Part shown: positions 46,956-64,000 of the stretch, one piece after another
How positions within the stretch are numbered: the stretch's first letter is position 1
Layout: every line of letters starts with the position of its first letter
Source of the DNA: Owenia fusiformis
Lineage: Eukaryota
DNA length: 64,000 nucleotides
NCBI GenBank assembly: GCA_903813345.2
Contig: CAIIXF020000001.1
Location: 14,260,001-14,324,000, forward strand
Reading direction: 5' to 3'
The notes under the pieces: model-generated
Seen by the model: only the letters and a program-made list of their open reading frames with translations
Databases searched by the model: none
What the model was told of the DNA's origin: nothing
Program-made: the position numbers and the translations under genes

Positions 46956-48734
46956 TACTGAAGTACCCTGGGTGTTGTACTACAATTTATATTTCAATAA
47001 CAACTCGAAGCAGAAATAAAATGTGCCCATTTAACAATTAAATGTATGATACCACTTGGTACTTACGTCGATAAACAAATGCTGTACAATATAATAACAA
47101 TATTTTACATAACTTTTTGTGCGTTTATTTTTAATAATGCGTTAATTGGCACACTCATGCATCATTTGGCCAAATCTATGTATCCACATATACACAAAAC
47201 TGTTCCTTAACTGGCAAATGTAATAATAAAATTCCTACACATAGCAATACATGTAGATTAAAACATGTCATATTACAGTTGAGCACAAATGGAGCCCCAT
47301 CTTGCCCAAATGGAGCATGGAGCCCCCTCCCCCATCCACTTGGGCTGTGCTACTATATCACTCACCAAGTGTTTCTCTTCAGATTTCTGGCTGAATATTT
47401 GACAATATTACAGAAATTTAGCAACAGAATATGGTTTCAGTGTAATAATATTTTAAAAAAACATTCAAACCCTGTGCTGTAGGTGGATTGAAAATCTCAT
47501 CATCTTTAGGGAATGCCTCAATATTCTGATGTTTGCCAAAATTGTAGTTAATAAGTACAGTAGCTTAGATTCATCCCCTCCCTCCCCCAAATGTTAATAT
47601 TTGTTTATTATTGCAAAATGTCATAGACTTTTATCCCATCTTCCCATTGTTGGTTCCCATGCTCAATCACTATGTTCTACTTGTCTTTCTATAATCTTTG
47701 GACATGTCCGAAGCTTGATGAAGCAAGATACCTAATTCCTTGAAATGAATTGATTAGATTTACGGCTAACATCAATATATTGAGGTTGTCCCTAACCAAG
47801 GTAGTTACGGTTATACAATTTCATCCAAATGGCCTAAAAGCAAAGAAAAAATGAAAGTATATTATAGAGGCCTAGAAAATAAAGTTTAAAAATTTAAACA
47901 ATGTGTTTTTCTTGGTTTCTTATAGAACACATCTTTTTTGTGTTTATAAATGTTTTAGATGGTTCTCATGACTTTATTGAAATGATAAACCTGATAATAT
48001 AAAATAGTATTTCTCAATTTTCAACGATCTATGGTGAAAACGATACTTGAGAAATAAGGTTTTGAGGTAGAATTAAAATGAGACAATACACCAATACTTC
48101 TACCATCTGCCTAGCAAAATTTTTACAAACTGTGTACATTCTTCTGAAATAAACACACTTTGTCATGAAGTTGCCATAAGAACAAAAGGAACTCAAAGGC
48201 TAATATGATTCCCATTGGTCTCTCGCAATAGTTTGTGTAGTTACCATGCTGATGGGTCTGTCAACAAAGGGCCTTTTTTCATTCTGGATCCCATCCCAAT
48301 AATCAAGCTGACACAGAACAGAATAGAATGGAATCAGAACACATTTTGGAATTTGCTCTCAGAATTTGAAATGTTTTCATTGTATTGAAATATTGTGTAT
48401 TAAAAAGATACTTTATATCTTACTTCTAATGTATTCAAAGTTAATGACCCTCTAAGGATCATGAATGGTGATATATTAAATCCAATTAATAGAACCAGTA
48501 CTTCTGAGAGAATACAATTACAATACAAAACAATAAGTTTCATTCCAAAGGGATTGTTTTTGTCCAAAGGAATTGTTTTTGAGACATACAGAGGGGCTTG
48601 GAATATCCCCACTATAAATTTTGTTTTTTGGGATAATAAGCTCGAAAATGAAAATCAGGGACAGGTTTAATAGAGCTCTGTGTTTCTAACAAGAACTTAA
48701 TATTCTGGAGGCAGTTGTGTTATTTACTTCACAA

Positions 48735-49095
48735 AGGCTCTAACTTCTCTTATATTCCTGTCTATAGCTACCCATAACACATAGGCTCTAAGTTCCCTTG
48801 TACCAGCCTTTAGCAACCCACAGAGGGTCAAAATCCCTTATCCCTGTTAATAGCAACCTATAACACCCAGGCTCTAAGTTCCTGTCTATGAAAACCCATA
48901 ACACATAGTCTCTAACTTCCCTCATTCCTGTCTATGAAAACCCATAACACATAGTCTCTAAATTCTCTCATTCCTGTCTATGGAAACCCATAACACATTG
49001 TCTCTAACTTCCCTCATTCCTGTCTATGAAAACCCATAACACATAGTCTCTAAATTCTCTCATTCCTGCCTATGGAAACCCATACCACAAATAGG
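48735..49095. repeat. ~45-bp minisatellite just downstream of the PDE9 stop codon
   Basis: Unit cccataacacatagtctctaacttccctcattcctgtctatgaaaa, about 8 copies. Confidence 0.85.
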
Positions 49096-49254
49096 CACAT
49101 AAAATATACCAAATGAGACATAGCCTAGACTCGAAATTGATAATATCACAGGTTCAGTCCACAGTAAATGGCGAATAAGATCATTCCACAATGCCAATGT
49201 GAACCAAAAATAGCGATTTGTACACGAGACAGATTCTTTTGGTTAAATTCTGTG

Positions 49255-52200
49255 CTAGGATTTGATTGGCTTAGAGCTGATTCCATTTTTAATTCCACTT
49301 GACGATTCTTTTCGTTCCATCTTTTGTCCATCAATGGCATCTGCCATTTTTGTATAATAGTCCAAAGCCCAATTCACAGGTCGTATAAGGTGTTCCTGAA
49401 ACACATAGAAAGTATATATTTATTCATAAGGCATGTTTAATTTTAAATCACCAAACATGTACGAACTGACACAATGTCTCCCTTCAATATCCTCAGAAAG
49501 GATATTATATCTCCATGTGCAATTTCTCAACAATATAATAATACATGAAATGCATGATAATAAATAAATGCATCAAAAGCTTAATGGACAGAGGGTTAAA
49601 TATATTTTGCAATTTTCATTGCTATTGAATTATATCCCCATTCACTTTGGCATATCATAACTCAATTTAAATTATATTATGTCCTACAATGTACTTAAGA
49701 GTTTAACTAGATTCAGAAAAACATGGTATCATAAAGTTTGAGAAAAATACCTCTATAGCTGGAAACATCTCCGCCAAGGCAGCAAACAGAGGCAAAAGTA
49801 CAAATCTGATGAACCCTATTTGAGAGGAAGGTTTTGTTACTTTGTCTCTATCCATGAATGGTGCTACTGGCAGTCCTTCAAGCTTCTCCACGTCACTCTA
49901 GAAACATTAGAGTAAGATTATACTTTAGAAACATGACAGATGAATTATACAGGGTGTCAAATAAATATGTTCTCCCCCTTAGCTTTAACATTCACATAAC
50001 TTTTTGTATGCATGACATCTGAATAGTTATTGAGCCAATTGAAACTAGGCTTCATGGACCAACTCCAAAAGAAATTTCAGATGACTAGCCCAACTTGAGG
50101 CACATTTATGCATAAAAGTTCATACTTTTGAAATTAAGAGGGGAGAACATATTTACTTGATACCCTGTACTCTAGAAACATTACAGCTACAATGGTTGTA
50201 CAAAACACTTCAGCCACATTATACTTTAGAAATGTTACAGCTAAATCTTACTTTAAATATGTTACAGCTAGATTATATGAAATGAAATTTGAACATTTTT
50301 GGCTGCCATTGTGTGGATGCCTCGAACACTTTCAGACAATCTGAATACGATATTCTTAACGCTGTCACTCAAATTCTTAAAGGTTTTTACAAATAATTTT
50401 GATAAAAATTGGTATCAATGTTTTTGTATTCAGGCCTTGCCTTGTTGAGTCAACAATCTTCAAAATGTTGATTAATATAATAACCACAGTAAGAAATAGA
50501 TCTTATTTAGGAATGTCATGCAAGAAAAATTGTGAATGGGAGGATGACAGAGGGACAAACAACAACACAGAACCTTAATTTAATAGAAAATAAGATTTAT
50601 CTTTATTTACAGGTCGGGAAAAAGAAAATTGTAAAAGATCTAAGGATTTTGTACATTTACTTAATTACTGTTCATAATTACCAAGGAGGATTGGAAGCCG
50701 TTATTGAAATTCGATACTCCATTGCCCAGAGTAGACCAATTTGGTTACAATATTACTCATATTATGAAGACTAGAACTGCTGAGGAAGCTTGAATACTTC
50801 CAAAATATTCATAATGACCACCTTTCAGTGAAATACTCCAAAGAGAACCTTATAGAATTTTTTTTACTAAATTGTTCCACTGCAGGCAATGGAGTATAGA
50901 GTTTGAATAATGGCTGCCAATCCTCCTTGATAATCACATAATAATATTGTACTACCATATATAATTGTGGTCTATTTTCATGATTTCAATATTGAGAATT
51001 CAAAACATAATCTCTTTTTTGTATTATTATCATCCAATTCCATTTCTTGTCTTGATATATCAAATACAATGGTATAACCTTGTAAAAACAATAGTAATAT
51101 GTTCATGAGACACCAACGACTGTGGTATCCTACATTACGGACCTGCATGAAGAATTCCTGTAGAAGGCAATCGAGCCACGGTTCTGCAACCTCCATAGGA
51201 CGGGCCTCATTTGATATATCAGCAACTTTCACTAGTATTTGTAGAAGCTAAATAAACAACAGAGTGACAACACATCTAGAATATTGAGTCACTACGACGA
51301 CACAGTGTACCAATATAACTATACTATAGATGTGCAAGGGAACACACTGAAACTCCCTCTGTGACTCTCACATTATTGAAAAGGGTTTCATTCTTTCGCT
51401 ATGGCTGAAGTGTGCATTTTCATTTGTATCCAGAATGTATCCAGAATGTAAGATCTTTAAATACACCTCTGTAAGTAAAACACCTACATTACATGTAATA
51501 CTTTTAAGAGTCCCATGACCCATTGGCTCAATGTTAAATGAACCCGAAGTCCAACATCTTTTTTATGTCTCAGTCAGAGTCACATAAGGTAGTTTACAAG
51601 CCACATATTGGGAAAGGTAACACGCATAAAGTGCAATGAGGGAAGCAATATCTTGCAAACCATGCAGAGGTAGAAAGCCGTCATATCTATATATTTCTAC
51701 AACGGTGGGAGACAAGCAATGGAGGGAGCACTTGGAGCAATCAGAAAGTGTCAACTTTGATCCATCCATGGCCATCTCCACCCACACTGTTTCCCATTCC
51801 CTTTAATCCAATCATTGGGGTAGGCTGGTACATGCATAAGGCTAGGATAATCAAATTATATGTTCAGATTTTTAATTTTTTTTTTTTATTATTAAATTTA
51901 TTTCAATAGAATACAAAAAATGTAAATACAGACATGTAAATTCTTAAATCGCCACAATGGCATTATATAAGAATAGGGGGCAGGTGGAAGTAGAAGTGGC
52001 AGAGCAGGCAGGGTCTTGGACTAGGGCAAGTGTGACGGGACTTGAGGATACTAGAGATGGATAAGAAGGAGGGAATTAGCTATTGTCTTTGATAAAATTA
52101 ACAATGAGAAGTAGTATTTGGGAATTTGCATCTATGTTTAATTTGGGAATTCCTGTTTTCAAAATAGCTATGAAATCAGTTTGAGAGAGATTATGACTGA

Positions 52201-55200
52201 AGATGTTTGGTTCGAGATCAGTGAGTTTGTCCATGAATTGCTGTCTTTGTATAGTAAGTAAGTCACATTGAAAGAGAAAATGTTTCAGAGTTTGTGGTTT
52301 TCCACAAGTGCAATTAGGGCTGTCAATAGACTGAAAGTTGTGAGCGTAGAACTGGGCTTTGAAGTATAGGTCAGCTCTCACTTTATTGAGAACTATTTCT
52401 TGAACCCTTGTTAGATTAAGCTGGCTTGTTGACAAAATCGGGGGCGTTTTTTGGAAATGTACTCTTTGGTGTTTTTTAAAATTCGAAAGAGTATTCTTAG
52501 ATTTAATAGCAGGTGGAAGATTGATCCAATTTGAAATTGCAGCTGGTATTGCTGAGGTGGAGAATCTATTTGAGCATCTAATGGGCATTTTAAATGCTTC
52601 ATTATATCTCAATACTCTGTTTGCATGGTTTCTAAATTTGTCAAAAATATCAGTTACATAGGGAGGACTTGTACCATTTACAATTTTGAACATAAAGTTG
52701 TTAATCTGGATACTGCGTCTTGATTCAAGAGTTGGCCAATTGAGTAGGTTTAAAACCTTTTTTGAACTGCTCCCTTGGATACACCCAGAACAATAAAGTG
52801 CAGCTTTATAATAAAGACTGTCGAGTCGTTGTAATAGGAACTTTGAGGCTGTGCTGTACATGATAGCACCATAGTCAAAATGGGGTAAAATAAAGGACTT
52901 AAATATGGTTTCTAGATGCTTACTACCTAACTTATATTTAAGTTTCTTTAAAGGGTTTAACATTTTTCGTATTTTTGATATGATTTCTCCAATATGCTTG
53001 TCATATGATAAGCTTGGGTCAAAAGTAAATCCCAGATGTTTGTGCTCGTGATCTCTGGTAATTTCAACATTGTTTAACTTTGAAACAGAAACATTATCGA
53101 CTTTAGATCTGGATGAGTGGAATATCATTTCAGAACTCTTTTCAGGTTTAAACTCCAATTTCCAGGTGTCAGACCATTTTTCAATTTTAATTAGGTTAGA
53201 TCTGGCTATTGCATCTACTTCTTGTGGATGCTTAGGGTCAAAAGGATGATGTAGAGAAGTGTCATCCGCATAAATATAGCAATGCCCCTCCAGATTGTCT
53301 GGAAGGTCATTAATGTATAGGAGAAATAATATTGGCCCAAGTATTGAGCCCTGGGGGACACCACAATTGATAAAGTCATTTTCAGAATAATTTGAAAGTT
53401 CCCCAGATATCTGTACAGCAATTTTTCTATTAGTAAGGCAAGATTTGATAATTTTTTGAATTTGCCCTTGGAAGCCATATGCTGAAAGTTTATGAAGTAG
53501 TAGCTTATGTGGTACTCTGTCAAATGCAGCCGCTATATCTAGAAAAATTGTTTTGGAAGCTTTTCCTTGTTCAAATGTGCTCTGAAGAAAATGTTCAATC
53601 GATAAAAGTTGATGAATAGTACTATGACCTGGTAAGAATCCGGACTGATGTTTGAAAAGAAGATTATTGTCAATTAAATGCTTCCTGATTCGATCAGCTA
53701 AAACTTTTTCAAATACTTTAGAGATACAGCTTAAAAGAGTGATAGGTCTATAATTATTGATGTTTGATTTGTCATTCTTCTTAAAAATTGGGCAAACATT
53801 TCCAATTTTCCAGATATCCGGGTAGGTACACTTTGATAAAAGTTTGTTGAATAAGTTGGCTAAAGGTTTTGAAATGGTATGGGCTGTCAAATTCAACATT
53901 TTGTTGGTGATGTTATCTGGGCCACATGCCTTTGAGGTGTCTAAGGACAAAATTATTTTCATTACCTCGAATTGATCGGTCTGGGCAGAAATGAGTAGAG
54001 AATTAGTCCTAATTGGGAATTGGGGCAATTGATCAAAAGTTGCATCAGTATGATTTTTTGAGGCAAAGAAACTCATAAATCGGTTAGCTATATCAAGGTT
54101 GTTAGATAAGTCGTGTCCAGAGACATCATCATAGATACTAGAAATATCATTTTTATGTAAATTGTTACCAAGGAATGATTTAATTAACCTCCAATAGTTT
54201 TTATCAGATTTATTGAGTTGGTCAATTGATGAGATAGTTTTGAGTTCATGTGCCTCTTTGGCTTGTTCAATTAGTTGGGAAACTTTAGAAGCTTGTTGAT
54301 TATAATTGAATTTGTTAACTTGATTAGGAGCTTTTGAAAATTTCTTATATAAAACTTTCTTTTTTGATATTTCACGTTTAAGATTATCATTGAACCATGG
54401 CTGGTCATTTGACCTTACAGTGATGATTTTATTTGGAATTTTGGATTTGTATATGTCCGAGAGTTTTTCAATAAAGTTAGAGGTAGCTAAGTCCAAGTCT
54501 ATGTTTCTATCGATAATATCTGTCCATTCGGTATTTCTAATTGCATCATTCAAAGTTTCAAGATTAGCTTCATGGTATTTCCAAATGGTTTTTTTAATAG
54601 GCTTGGACTTAGTCACACCAACTTTAATTTGAGCTACAATTGTGCTGTGGTCGGTTTTTTCAATGGGATCAGTGACATCCCAGTTGTCAAAAATATCTGG
54701 AGAATCAGTCAAAATATGATCAATGCAGGATTTGGAGTGATCAGTTATTCTAGTTGGTTCACTAACAAGTTGTACAAAGTCTTGGTTATCTATGGTTTCT
54801 AAGAGTTTAGTTCCTGCTAAGTTTATGTCATCATTATCATACCAGATTGAATGTTTTGCATTCAGGTCACCCATCAGTATGACATGGTCAAAGGCCGGCT
54901 GAGATGTTACTATTTGATCAAGTTGAGTTTCCAATAATGAAAAATAATTTCTTGTTTCTGTTGCATTCTGACTGGGTGACCTGTAGCAAGTGCCAAATAA
55001 AATTCGTTTATGGTTCACAATAACAGTTACTAACAGATTTTTAATTGCCTTGTCCTTGAAATTAATTATGCAAAATGACACATACATGGATATGTCAAAA
55101 TGTAAAGTGGAGAAGAAATATATGGTAGAATCACAATAAATGCTGAATTGAGCTTATTTTTGATGCTGTATTGAAGTTTTTGACTGAGAAGATATGCTGA

Positions 55201-57342
55201 ACATTTAATTTTTTTCCCTTGGCCTCGCATGCAACAATTCATGCAGGCAAATATCTAAACAAAGTAAGACTCCTGGATGAACATAATGGATATTTCACAT
55301 TTTCTTTTGTTTTATTGTATCGGCAATTTTCATTGAAAATCACTGTGAATACAGCCCAAGGAAAAATTACATTAATTTTGCAAAAATCATAGAATTTCAT
55401 TATGCTCTAATCACAAAGTGTACTTACTATACAATATACACAAGCTTACAATACAATATCTATACAACAACTGCATGCTTTAAACTGAAGTCTAATCATG
55501 CATTTTGAAAGCCAACCTGGTTAAAAAATTCTTGAAGTAAGCAATCAATCCACGGTTCAGCAACCTCCATGGGTCGAGCCTCGTTTGAAATATCTGACAC
55601 TTTCATCAAAATCATCATAACCTATTGTAGAAAAGCTATAGGATTAGACCTAACAGAAGCAACGTACTGGGCTATACTGGGGTGTGGAGGCATTATACTT
55701 AGGCTTGTCCTCAGCTAAGGTATCTGCTTCAAGCATTTTGGTATAAAGAACTGGTACATTTGTATACTGTAGGTATATCAAGCAGGATCTTACTAAATAT
55801 TAGAAGCGGCCATTATGTTACCATGACAACTAGGAATACAAAAATGTCTCCCATTTTTTTGTGTAGCAGGAGACCGCTTCAATCCTGCAATGTGTGAATG
55901 TAAAATGCAGGATGGGGATCATTATTATCCACGAGTCAGGGCTCCTATTCTAAACGAAGCAATTGCATTCAAGTATATAAATATTAATGATTCGCTAGTC
56001 TTGCATCTTGCCTCTATTGTGTTTATGTTGTCACAATCTCTCAAAGTCTGGCCAAGAGCAAGATAGAGTAGGAATCAGAGACTTGACGCGAGACTAGGGA
56101 ACCACATGCAGATACAATGCAGAAAATGTTCATACAAAACTTTGTAGCTATTAAAGAGGCAACAAAAGAAACAAAAGAGTTGATGGAAACTCGTTGAAAA
56201 ACTGTCACAGTTTTACCGAACTGAGTTTTTGACCTCATTTTAAGAAAGTACCTTGATTTTTAAAGTTATCTTAGAGAAAATCTCCAAAAGTCAACATCTT
56301 CTGCAGAAAATTCTGCATCTTGAACTATCAGGTACTTTCTTGTTTGATCAAATACTGAACATTCTTAGATAGCATCATTGGAAAAAATTATTTCCAACTT
56401 ATTACAATCACAGTATACATTGCTGCCACTTTAAGGTAGGCTAAGTAGAGTCATCTGACAAAATAACTTTCAAATGCAAATTCATTCCACAGTGACTACC
56501 TTAATGCTTTGAACTTTCGAAGCATGTTGATATCATATCAGATATTATTCAAAGATGACTCTTGTTATTTATAAAATAAAAAAATATAATAAACTAATGG
56601 CAGTTTTCTGTCATGGATTGTTCTCAAATGAGAAAAAATACTGATTTCTTGTTATGACTTTCCAAATTTCAACTGGGTACAGATTGACACTCAATCGGGT
56701 GCTGCACCCGGCTGATTCAATGTTATGAATGCAATGGATACCAACAAGATTTTATCTTTAAGATCTACGTACCAATGATTTGTGCTCTTTGTTGGTAAAA
56801 TCTTTGTTGGGTATAATGGCTTTGAAAGAATTGAGTATGTCTGAATGTTTGGCCATGTCTGTTGCTAAAACACATCTGAAATGAACATTTCAAATAAGTT
56901 GTTATTATAAATTTCTAAATGATTCAAAGATTTGATAAAAAGAGTAAATATGGTATGTTGTTTTAAAATGTTGATTACAACACCAAAAAAATCCTCTCTA
57001 ATTGTGGTAACAGAGGTTTTGATGCAGGACGTTCTCTCGAATATGTTGGATGGTTCAGGAATTTATTTTCTCTATACAAAGACTTAGTATTGTTATTATA
57101 AAGAGACTTTATGAACACCCTGTATATCTAACAAATATTAAGAGTTATAAAATCAAAAATGGTCGGGTTCTTCATACTCACTTGATCATTCCCTCTCGGA
57201 CCTTCTTGAATGTCTCTAGTGGAAGATTTCTGAATATATTTGCATGATTTTTCTCAAGAATCTCGAAGGCTTTGGAGCAATGGTGGTTTTCCAGTGGTGA
57301 AATATCATTGTATCTCATCGCTAATTCTGTTCTTGCGTTGAT
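49255..57342 (-). CDS. PDE9A: cGMP-specific phosphodiesterase 9-like, 3' part of catalytic domain (5' exons not found in window)
   Basis: Exons 57342-57182 ([21 protein letters not shown]), 56875-56773 ([10 protein letters not shown]), 55621-55517 or 51247-51143 ([17 protein letters not shown]), 49897-49751 ([32 protein letters not shown]), 49395-49255 (stop TAG); phases consistent. Confidence 0.93.
49950..50167. mobile_element. Tc1/mariner-like MITE
   Basis: ta|CAGGGTGTCAAATAAATATGTTCTCCC ... GGGAGAACATATTTACTTGATACCCTG|ta. Confidence 0.85.
51143..51247 (-). CDS. PDE9A: PDE9 duplicated exon, variant B ([35 protein letters not shown])
   Basis: 105 nt, phase 0-0, tttag acceptor and GTCCGT donor. 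Confidence 0.9.
51878..55033 (-). mobile_element. Young CR1/L2-group LINE, ORF2 (partial APE endonuclease + RT) uninterrupted, 5'-truncated
   Basis: CYRSP, MGDLNA, SCIDHI, TDH endonuclease motifs and full RT; 13-bp TSD cagatttttaatt at 51865-51877 and 55034-55046; the first ~18 aa of the listed ORF come from flank. Confidence 0.96.
55517..55621 (-). CDS. PDE9A: PDE9 duplicated exon, variant A ([35 protein letters not shown])
   Basis: 105 nt, phase 0-0, aatag acceptor and GTTGGC donor. Confidence 0.9.
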
Positions 57343-58183
57343 CTGAAGGAGAGAAGATTACAATAATTCTTTTTTTACAGTAATTCTTAATTGAAAAATA
57401 TGTATCATGTCAGACTTGAAATATGTAAATTTTATATAGAGATGTCCACCTTCCATCCAAAGAACCTCAAACCTTTCTAAAATAAACAGTGGAACCATTA
57501 ATGATAAGAATTCAGAATTAGTATTAAAACCAGGGCATAAACATGCAAAATGTCACCACCTGTCATTTGTTACAGATGCCACATGTCGAACACCACCATG
57601 CACTGGACACCAACAGTGGACCGCCGCCACAAGTTGGAGACTATATCAAAATGTTAATGGTGACATTAAAACCATTGCCAGGGTAGGAGGTCTGAATGTT
57701 GTTGGTCCAAATCACAAGAAGCATTACAGTCATGATTCCTCTGCAATGGGGTTATAGCAAAAAAAGATGGAAACCTTGTGCACTGTTCTTCTATTATACA
57801 GATTACACAAACAACAATTATTCTCCTTTACCTAGAACTATGCTATAATCAACCTGGAAAAGTCTCACGCTGTGTCTACAGACTCATATTTCAATATAAC
57901 AGGCATCAATATTTAAAGCAGATTTGACATAAGCTCATGTCATTATTGACAATATTGTGCAACTGTAATAAGTCAATCAAGGCCAATACATTCTAATGAA
58001 GTTCAACATCAGTTTTATGTGTATGGTATGTTATAGTCATCTAAATTCTATCATATCAATGTTTTTGGTGTCAATACAAAAATGTTATGCCCAGGAATGT
58101 CTGTATTTCATGAGGGCCAGCCTGCTGTCATGGGAATCTACTACAAAGACAAATCACAGTATGTATCAACACAACTCCAATTG

Positions 58184-59460: not shown

Positions 59461-59850
59461 GCACGTGATAAAATATGAGAAATATCTTAAAGGTACTATC
59501 TCTACTGAGGATGTGCTTGAGATAAATGCATGGCTTGAGAAACATCTTAATGGTACCATCTCTGGTGAAGATTTGCATATGATAAATGCATGGCTTGAGA
59601 AACATCTTAAAAGTACCATCTCTGGCGAAGATGTGCATATGATAAATGCATGGCTTGAGAAACATCTTAAAAGTACCATCTCTGGCGAAGATGTGCATAT
59701 GATAAATGCATGGCTTGAGAAACATCTTAAAAGTACCATCTCTGGCGAAGATGTGCATATGATAAATGCATGGCTTGAGAAACATCTTAAAAGTACCATC
59801 TCTGGCGAAGATGTGCATGTGATAAATGCATGGCTTGAGAAACATCTTAA
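59461..59850. repeat. 60-bp minisatellite, ~6.5 copies
   Basis: gataaatgcatggcttgagaaacatcttaaaagtaccatctctggcgaagatgtgcatat repeats in register with the 60-nt lines. Confidence 0.97.
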
Positions 59851-62844: not shown

Positions 62845-64000
62845 CAATATCACATTTAATCTATTATTAACCTGATATGTAATATCCCCAAATGCCAATA
62901 CCAAATATCACATTTTAACCCATTAGAAACCTAATATGCATTGTTGTATCCCCAAATATCAATACTAAATATCACTACTAAATATATACCAAATATCACG
63001 TTTTAATCCATTATAAACCTAATATGCATTGTTATATCCCCATATATCAATACAAATATCACATTTTTAATCTATTACTAACCGGATATACATTTTAATA
63101 TTCCCAAATATCAATACTAAATATCACATTTAACCCATTAGAAACCTAATGTGCATTGTAATATCCCCAAATATCAATACCAAATATCACATTTTAATCC
63201 ATTACTAACCTAGTATGCATTGTTATATCCCCAAATATCAATAACAAATACCACATTTTAATCCATTAGAACCCTAATATACATTGTTGTTTCCCCAAAT
63301 ATCAATACCTAATATCATATTTTAATCCATTATTAACCTAATATGCATTGTAATATCCCCAAATATCAATACTAAATATCACATATTAATCCATTAATAA
63401 CCTGGTATGCATTGTTATATCCCCAAATATCAATACTAAATATCACATATCAATCCATTACTAACCTGATATGCATTGTTATATCCCCAAATATCAATAC
63501 TAAATATCACATATTAATCCATTACTAACCTGGTATGCATTGTTATATCCCCAAATATCAATACTAAATATCACATATTAATCTATTACTAACCTAATAT
63601 GCATTGTTGTATCCCCAAATATCAATAACAAATACCACATTTTAATCCATTACTAACCTAATATGCATTGTAATATCCCCAAATATCAATACTAAATATC
63701 ACATATTAATCCATTACTAACCTGGAATGCATTGTTATATCCCCAAATATCAATACTAAATATCACATATTAATCCATTACTAACCTGGTATGCATTGTT
63801 ATATCCCCAAATATCAATACTAAATATCACATATTAATCCATTACTAACCTGGTATGCATTGTTATATCCCCAAATATCAATACTAAATACCACATTTTA
63901 ATCCATTACTAACCTGATATGCATTGTTATATCCCCAAATATCAATACCAAATATAACATTTTAATCCATTACTAACCTGATATGCATTGTTGTATCCAG
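62845..64000. repeat. 64-bp minisatellite, ~18 copies, runs off the window
   Basis: Unit atatccccaaatatcaatactaaatatcacatattaatccattactaacctggtatgcattgtt. Confidence 0.95.

Follow-up and report, generated by a model that had tools for sequence, protein, structure and literature searches.

The 64,000-base stretch of contig CAIIXF020000001.1 (assembly GCA_903813345.2, positions 14,260,001 to 14,324,000; hereafter the window, numbered from its first base) carries part of the phosphodiesterase gene PDE9 of the annelid Owenia fusiformis on its minus strand. Here, we report two homologous exons, A and B, which occupy one slot in the catalytic domain of this gene. We consider that one exon was duplicated in tandem in the distant past and that the copies are now mutually exclusive, each mRNA carrying either A or B and specifying one of two full-length enzymes that differ at 7 of the 35 residues; we put the probability of this reading at about 0.85. 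In one sequencing run, X1, the junction pairs specific to A and to B were about equally abundant, and their depths summed to approximately that of the constitutive exons. The first-pass annotation, made from the letters alone, had proposed the pair as a candidate for mutually exclusive splicing, and this proposal is supported by the A-only and B-only contigs and by the absence of an A-to-B joint among the joints listed.

Exon map and RNA junctions of the slot

First, the gene was identified from its predicted protein. The deposited Owenia proteins P0014 (542 amino acids, aa) and P0004 (553 aa) mapped exon by exon to 57345-49258, their residues before about 300 lying outside the window, and exon A was 100% identical to the corresponding part of P0014. 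P0014 matched PDEase_I (PF00233) with 290.1 bits against a gathering cut-off of 24.8, in one stretch covering positions 1-235 of 238. Its best solved relative was human PDE9A (E = 5.8e-130), and the two catalytic domains aligned end to end, whereas the best solved match not named PDE9 (chains called just 'Phosphodiesterase') reached about 1e-50 and chains of PDE2 and PDE4 gave E values of 1e-47 or weaker. Because of the 290-bit domain match and this gap between PDE9 and non-PDE9 relatives, we identified the gene by its sequence as PDE9, of which the window holds the 3' half.

The features are listed in Table 1. The slot lies between the exon containing TDMAKH, which ends at 56773 with AAA TCA TTG followed by GT, and the exon starting at 49897, which begins in phase 0 with AGT GAC GTG preceded by AG; the first-pass annotation had placed both copies at this same position. 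Exons A and B are each 105 bases long, in phase 0-0, with AG before and GT after, and the coordinates, translations and other numbers originally given for them were all correct. No constitutive exon was found between A and B when the proteins were mapped to the window.

Table 1. Features of the PDE9 locus and of the remaining window.
Feature	Position	Strand	Remarks
Constitutive PDE9 exon (...REGMIK)	57182..57346	minus	PDEase_I positions ~54-107; 5' end approximate (record 6 of run X1 reaches 57346)
Constitutive exon upstream of the slot (...TDMAKH...KEHKSL)	56773..56875	minus	PDEase_I 108-147; phase 0 end; 5' splice site GTACGT
Alternative exon A	55517..55621	minus	35 codons; zinc-ligand Asp (DISNE) and next helix; 5' splice site GTTGGC
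A-B intron	51248..55516	minus	4269 bases, GT-AG; mostly filled by retrotransposon
Alternative exon B	51143..51247	minus	35 codons; slot and phase as exon A; 5' splice site GTCCGT
Constitutive exon downstream of the slot (...PAIE)	49751..49897	minus	PDEase_I 185-236
Last coding exon (EHLIRPVNW...KPIKS) and 3' untranslated region (UTR)	48200..49395	minus	stop 49257-49255; UTR at least to 48200
Non-long-terminal-repeat (non-LTR) retrotransposon frame, 1025 codons	52076..55153	minus	endonuclease (Exo_endo_phos_2 1.1e-14) and reverse transcriptase (RVT_1 1e-36)
Tandem repeat, 60 bases x 6.2	59476-59850		upstream intron; keeps a 170-codon frame open, no real Pfam match
Tandem repeat, 64 bases x 15.8	62986-63998		near window end

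Subsequently, the two exons were compared with each other. They shared 28 of 35 residues and 76 of 105 bases, and a recount of the 28 shared codons again gave 14 identical and 14 synonymously different ones. By the Nei-Gojobori method, the proportion of synonymous differences (pS) was 0.858, which is saturated and too high for distance correction, and the proportion of nonsynonymous differences (pN) was 0.129, giving a pN/pS of 0.15. The mutual match of A and B reached E = 3.7e-17 in blastn (82 bases, 80.5%) and about 1e-16 in tblastn, and a third copy was not detected within the 64-kb window at E <= 10. The 300-base flanks of the exons were without significant similarity (best E of 0.13 upstream and 0.45 downstream), in agreement with the original remark that the flanking introns are dissimilar. 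The saturation of synonymous sites together with the conserved protein supports the view that both copies have probably been kept for a long time by purifying selection. The same had been supposed at first sight for an old duplication, and it accords with the pS and pN values and with the retention of both copies in annelids, molluscs and nemerteans described below.

We then examined which exons are joined in RNA. The region 48200-57400 was compared with raw RNA sequencing runs X17-X19 (sampled at 6-12%) and with run X1 in the form of assembled contigs; the run search gave 19 runs of one organism, and X17-X19, which are recorded as RNA, were added by species label. Run X1 appears to be RNA as well though its record does not say so, because its contigs are spliced and its exon depth (several hundred) exceeds the intron depth (about 10-25) by 10-30 fold.

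All four joints of the slot were present in RNA, three of them also in raw reads. The joint from the upstream exon to A (56773 to 55621) was seen in two reads of X17, none of X18 and one of X19, and that from A to the downstream exon (55517 to 49897) in one read of X19 and none of X17 and X18; both lay in the same X1 contig with a depth of 300.9. For exon B, the upstream joint (56773 to 51247) had no raw reads in X17, X18 or X19, the downstream joint (51143 to 49897) had two in X19 and none in X17 and X18, and both lay in an X1 contig with a depth of 326.6. Each of the two contigs ran unbranched from the upstream into the downstream exon, and their summed depth of 627.5 compares with 677.8 and 693.6 for the contigs of the constitutive exons. 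Neither a joint from A to B (55517 to 51247) nor one skipping both exons (56773 to 49897) was among the joints listed for the four runs. Accordingly, every junction that the first-pass annotation had named for single inclusion was found, and the one that would join both copies was not listed.

The remaining exon boundaries were defined by the same data. The 3' end of the first exon at 57182 is fixed by the joint 56875/57182, seen in the three raw runs and in an X1 contig, and the exon 56773..56875 was joined in RNA to 57182, 55621 and 51247. The joint at the 3' end of the downstream exon (49750/49394, cut +1) was likewise present in the three raw runs and in X1. Every bin between 49427 and 48200 showed RNA depth, with first mates on the plus strand; exon reads in general had this orientation, which the usual stranded libraries give for a gene on the minus strand. 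A tandem repeat of 46 bases x 4.6 lies within the PDE9 3' UTR (48879-49089).

The slot in the enzyme

Exons A and B matched the same PDEase_I positions, 150-183, with 36.9 bits each; hence, only one copy fits the domain. Indeed, the match of the A-only protein was uninterrupted, whereas that of the model containing both exons fell into two stretches and repeated positions 150-183, as anticipated by the earlier statement that joint inclusion would duplicate a core segment.

In the alignment with human PDE9A (PDB 4qge and others), which belongs to the same family, the slot corresponds to residues 393-427, and the Asp of DISNE corresponds to Asp402. According to a passage of PMC7828511, the zinc ligands of human PDE9A are His256, His292, Asp293 and Asp402, and passages of PMC6089849 assign Leu420, Leu421 and Tyr424 to the pocket and count Ile403 and Val417 among the inhibitor contacts. 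The slot thus includes Asp402, Ile403, Val417, Leu420, Leu421 and Tyr424, and by this alignment the segment carries the metal-ligand Asp and the following pocket helix, as had been stated from the start. The HD of CHDLDHPGYNN in the Owenia protein aligned with the human sequence, and the equivalent of His256 lies outside the window.

The seven differences between A and B fall on human positions 393, 394, 395, 398, 401, 417 and 426, of which 401 adjoins Asp402. The exons were identical at 402, 403, 405, 420, 421 and 424, and both keep the equivalents of the zinc-ligand Asp, Ile403, Asn405, Leu420 and Leu421; at position 424, where human PDE9A has Tyr, both have Phe. Because Asp402 and the direct pocket residues 403, 420, 421 and 424 are identical, it is mainly in the pocket's second shell that the two isoforms would differ. 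The first-pass annotation had spoken of two catalytic-pocket isoforms: the two isoforms stand, but the direct pocket residues and the Asp are the same in both, and the differences, with 401, 417 and 426 among the seven, are mostly of the second shell. Its remark on exons of vertebrate PDE9A is beside the point for an annelid gene. We suppose that there may be subtle differences between the A and B enzymes in catalysis, in the handling of metal or in ligand affinity, caused by residue 401 and by residue 417 on the pocket wall, and that the choice of exon may be regulated by cell type or stage.

Structure prediction was also attempted. In the AlphaFold2 model of the protein with both exons, the predicted local distance difference test score (pLDDT) was below 50 over residues 405-480. 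In the A-only control, made with the same 41 sequences, it was below 50 over 429-469; because the control is also of low confidence, the comparison says nothing on the folding of the doubled protein. In the control, the Asp was placed near the end of a helix (407-424), followed by a short loop and a second helix (430-447) formed by the rest of the exon.

Occurrence in other animals and age of the duplication

When the exon-A protein was used as the query, nine proteins exceeded 100 bits, a score roughly double that of one match, and all of them held two or three tandem copies. They came from Owenia (two models), Paralvinella palmiformis (three copies), Aplysia, Physella, Bulinus, Mya, Dreissena and the nemertean Tubulanus. 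A further protein with two copies, P0012 of Scortum barcoo (82 bits), was not counted; it has a repeated upstream block between the copies and looks like a duplicated stretch of the model. Judged by protein models, two or three copies of the slot are present in two annelids, 11 molluscs (Ruditapes partial) and two nemerteans, the doubled slot being seen in Paralvinella, Mya, Mercenaria, Dreissena, Ruditapes, Aplysia, Physella, Bulinus, Littorina, Haliotis, Pomacea, Patella, Tubulanus and Lineus. The second copy is therefore kept in these relatives; its absence or decay there was an outcome that the first-pass annotation had named as fatal to its proposal.

Pairs of A-only and B-only models of equal length, differing in the slot alone, were found in five mollusc genera (Table 2). 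B-only proteins were also obtained from short Logan contigs (P0138, P0239 and P0399), and in several molluscs the B-only form makes up most of the annotated isoforms.

Table 2. Isoform models by content of the slot (the X numbers here denote protein isoforms, not sequencing runs).
Species	A only	B only	Both exons, or other
Mya arenaria	X5 (520 aa)	X4 (520 aa)	both: X1-X3, X7
Mercenaria	X5	X4	both: X1-X3
Dreissena		X3, KAH3822016	both: X1, X2
Haliotis	XP_046328911 (525 aa)	XP_046328910 (525 aa)	both: X6 (560 aa)
Pomacea	X2 (527 aa)	X1 (527 aa)	
Patella vulgata	X2 (528 aa)	X1, X3 (528 aa)	without slot: X4 (493 aa)
Lineus longissimus			X1, X2, X3, all 523 aa: three different slot versions

Other species had one slot type only: Lingula (three of three isoforms), Branchiostoma (six of six cluster members), Acanthaster, Asterias and Ptychodera (two of two each) and, in single models, Glandiceps, Patiria, Exaiptasia, sharks, ray-finned fishes and lungfish; these species were judged from protein models, and a second exon may still exist in their genomes. 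A search with P0004 gave no tandem copies at 35-residue spacing among 149 representatives, a set in which one protein per 50% cluster hides isoforms and which therefore does not speak for absence. A region search with a bivalve B exon gave only four matches among five candidates; so small a number does not allow vertebrate PDE9A to be ranked against the B type.

We also observed slot versions beyond A and B. Unit 2 of Paralvinella (P0003) and a Helobdella protein (P0293) share the ending ...ECLF.EYFHQ, and Lineus X3 (P0230) is a different third form. With third versions in some spiralians, the cluster has expanded at least once more.

To ask whether a single old duplication or several had taken place, a tree of 46 slot units over 35 columns was calculated, with 14 units labelled A and 14 labelled B. 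The labels followed tandem position in 11 species and likeness in Patella, Pomacea and Lineus; no label was given to Paralvinella unit 2 or to Lineus X3. The A and B exons were placed on opposite sides of a single branch, with one change each (87 in the Shimodaira-Hasegawa-like approximate likelihood ratio test, SH-aLRT; none of 500 label shuffles was as low). Mean identity was 24.8/35 between A and B within species, compared with 27.8/35 for A-A and 26.7/35 for B-B pairs across phyla. According to a passage of PMC8111721, the group containing Owenia is sister to all other annelids. Since the exons group by type and not by species, synonymous sites are saturated and Owenia has this phylogenetic position, a single duplication probably took place before annelids, molluscs and nemerteans diverged, the support from so short an alignment being weak. 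The pair would then probably represent an old mutually exclusive exon cluster of Spiralia.

An even older A/B split, in the bilaterian ancestor, was considered as the PDE9 of fishes, sharks and amphioxus looks A-like and human PDE9A looks B-like. It was not adopted: deuterostome and cnidarian models have one type each, and B-like residues recur widely.

In sharks, ray-finned fishes and lungfish (P0160, P0198, P0172, P0151, P0025 and many teleosts), the PDE9 slot is nearly that of amphioxus and hemichordates and is unlike that of human PDE9A (...KCCDISNEVRP...EEYFMQ). This observation suggests a second vertebrate PDE9 gene that would be absent from tetrapods.

A more far-reaching proposal is that the spiralian ancestor made a switchable PDE9 active site, kept for more than half a billion years, with two discrete functional pocket states that animals have had either via alternative exons (Spiralia) or via separate genes (vertebrates); we regard it as doubtful. 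The B type is marked by the substitutions Ala401, Val407, Glu418 and Glu422, with a hydrophobic residue at 426. Val407, Glu422 and Met426 recur in vertebrate PDE9A proper, and several B-type residues occur in PDE9-like proteins of unicellular relatives. In fishes, sharks and lungfish, the putative second vertebrate PDE9 is of the A type, as is the PDE9 of amphioxus and hemichordates. Three states were found in Lineus and Paralvinella, and the third type in Helobdella.

Exon choice, competing readings and other features

We next considered how inclusion of a single exon might be enforced, and three familiar mechanisms were excluded. Incompatibility of U2 and U12 splice sites does not apply, the 5' sites GTACGT, GTTGGC and GTCCGT being of the U2 type and all introns GT-AG. 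Steric hindrance is excluded by the 4269 bases of the A-B intron, which would measure about 1 kb even without the retrotransposon. Frame shift followed by nonsense-mediated decay is excluded because 105 is a multiple of three, and A, B, both or neither all stay in frame.

Pairing between introns was examined as well. The best duplexes in 60-base windows, over six intron pairs, had energies of -34 to -45 kcal/mol, within or near the range of ten shuffles each. A search for dock and selector helices gave 11 overlapping ones compared with a mean of 9.1 (maximum 18) in 20 shuffles, in this single species. The docking-selector systems of Dscam and 14-3-3 xi solve the same problem of choosing one exon of a tandem cluster; unlike in those genes, the Owenia introns showed no pairing above shuffled controls. 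At +3, the 5' splice sites of A and of B each carry a pyrimidine, and both appear weaker than the neighbouring ones. For this reason we favour competition by exon definition, in which weak 5' splice sites on A and B would leave the decision to trans-acting factors; this is our best guess, although we hold it at somewhat less than even odds. Conserved intronic RNA pairing would be our second guess, and a clearly less probable one.

Several points weigh against mutually exclusive splicing with two functionally distinct products. Raw support is thin, with at most two reads per junction per run and with none of the four junctions in X18. The quantification comes from run X1 alone, in the form of contigs, which drop rare variants, and a minor form with both exons or neither is thus possible. 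Models with both exons in tandem have been deposited for Owenia (P0004 and P0007), Mya and Mercenaria (X1-X3), Dreissena and Tubulanus (X1/X2) and Haliotis (X6), and Patella X4 lacks the slot altogether. The splice sites, the duplex folding and the dock/selector search gave no mechanism of exclusivity. The two Owenia isoforms share their direct pocket residues, and a functional difference between them is argued from sequence. Finally, the tree has 35 columns, its key branch stays below 95, and 6 of 28 labels (Patella, Pomacea and Lineus) were given by likeness.

The reading that would gain most from these points is a leaky cassette pair, in which the inclusion of A and that of B are semi-independent, and appreciable amounts of A-only, B-only, A+B and skip-both mRNAs are made. 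The frame would permit this, as all four combinations escape decay; the tandem models of Owenia and of nine other species and the slot-less Patella X4 speak for it, and the fruitless search for a mechanism fits it. If the tandem and slot-less models have read support, exclusivity is leaky. Against this, the A and B contigs of X1 are unbranched and their depths (300.9 + 326.6) come close to the constitutive 677.8 and 693.6, neither an A-to-B nor a skip joint is listed in the four runs, and a protein with both exons repeats Pfam positions 150-183 and splits the domain. Moreover, it is common for gene-prediction pipelines to string tandem homologous exons together where reads give no support. Because no read or contig in the four runs supports the A-B junction, P0004 and P0007 (454 aa), which chain A and B, are probably prediction artefacts, and the tandem RefSeq isoforms of Mya, Mercenaria, Dreissena, Tubulanus and Haliotis may likewise be so. 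We regard a leaky pair as improbable.

Mutually exclusive exons need not both give a working enzyme, and one of them could be a decoy that lowers PDE9 activity, a kind of regulated unproductive splicing at the protein level. The activity of either isoform is judged here from sequence, and B-type exons evolve somewhat faster, as reflected in the B-B and A-A identities across phyla (26.7/35 and 27.8/35). However, both exons keep the equivalents of the Asp, Ile403, Asn405, Leu420 and Leu421 and have equal PDEase_I scores, pN/pS is 0.15, both types are kept in three phyla, and the B-only form is the commonest annotated one in several molluscs; a decoy is accordingly very improbable. Least credible of all is constitutive inclusion of both exons with a repeated segment in the enzyme, as in the deposited P0004 and P0007, which is contradicted by the direct joints from A to the downstream exon and from the upstream exon to B, the lack of a listed A-to-B joint, the duplicated core profile positions and the A-only protein P0014.

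Mutually exclusive exons derived from tandem duplication are known from pyruvate kinase PKM (exons 9/10), tropomyosin and exon pairs of voltage-gated channels. The PDE9 cluster resembles them in having adjacent homologous exons of equal length and phase, which fill one structural slot, probably enter each mRNA singly and appear to have been under long purifying selection; as in PKM, the enzyme isoforms differ in one internal segment. Unlike in those clusters, a catalytic metal ligand lies in the PDE9 segment, together with part of the substrate pocket. The cluster has two or three copies in Spiralia and was not seen in the deuterostome or cnidarian PDE9 models examined, and decay cannot enforce exclusivity when every combination is in frame. 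PDE9 is the cGMP phosphodiesterase of highest affinity and a drug target, and its known isoform diversity lies outside the catalytic domain; among the human PDE9A variants described, the differences lie in N-terminal exons. Full-text literature searches brought up no account of alternative exons in the PDE9 catalytic domain. RefSeq annotation already contains the isoforms, and the pair is thus an instance, hitherto undescribed, of a familiar kind of splicing in a familiar enzyme.

It is a neat and old case, set in the active site and open to direct test, but in principle no surprise. The natural slot variants, two and in some lineages three in number and spread over three phyla, offer a resource on how the second shell may tune cGMP affinity, metal use and inhibitor binding. 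The pair also provides a clean case for mutually exclusive splicing in which decay, steric hindrance and U12 introns cannot enforce the choice. Furthermore, it flags the deposited models that chain both exons, including the 553-aa Owenia protein, as probably describing a protein that is not made.

Other features of the window are as follows. The retrotransposon in the A-B intron extends over 51873-55153 in the orientation of PDE9, with AATAAA and an A-run at about 51900-51873, and RNA reads were found on both strands. Its sense polyadenylation signal, lying between A and B, might in principle end transcripts prematurely after exon A, of which no sign was seen. In the intron downstream of B, about 35 bases at 49945-49981 attracted hundreds of RNA reads with flanks that did not match the window, at a depth of 14-24 compared with about 0 around them and with many loose ends; this is a short dispersed repeat transcribed elsewhere. 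An X1 contig (depth 188) and three X18 reads joined 48530 to 57099 with 13 other letters between, which most likely reflects a shared repeat or a chimeric contig and not a splice.

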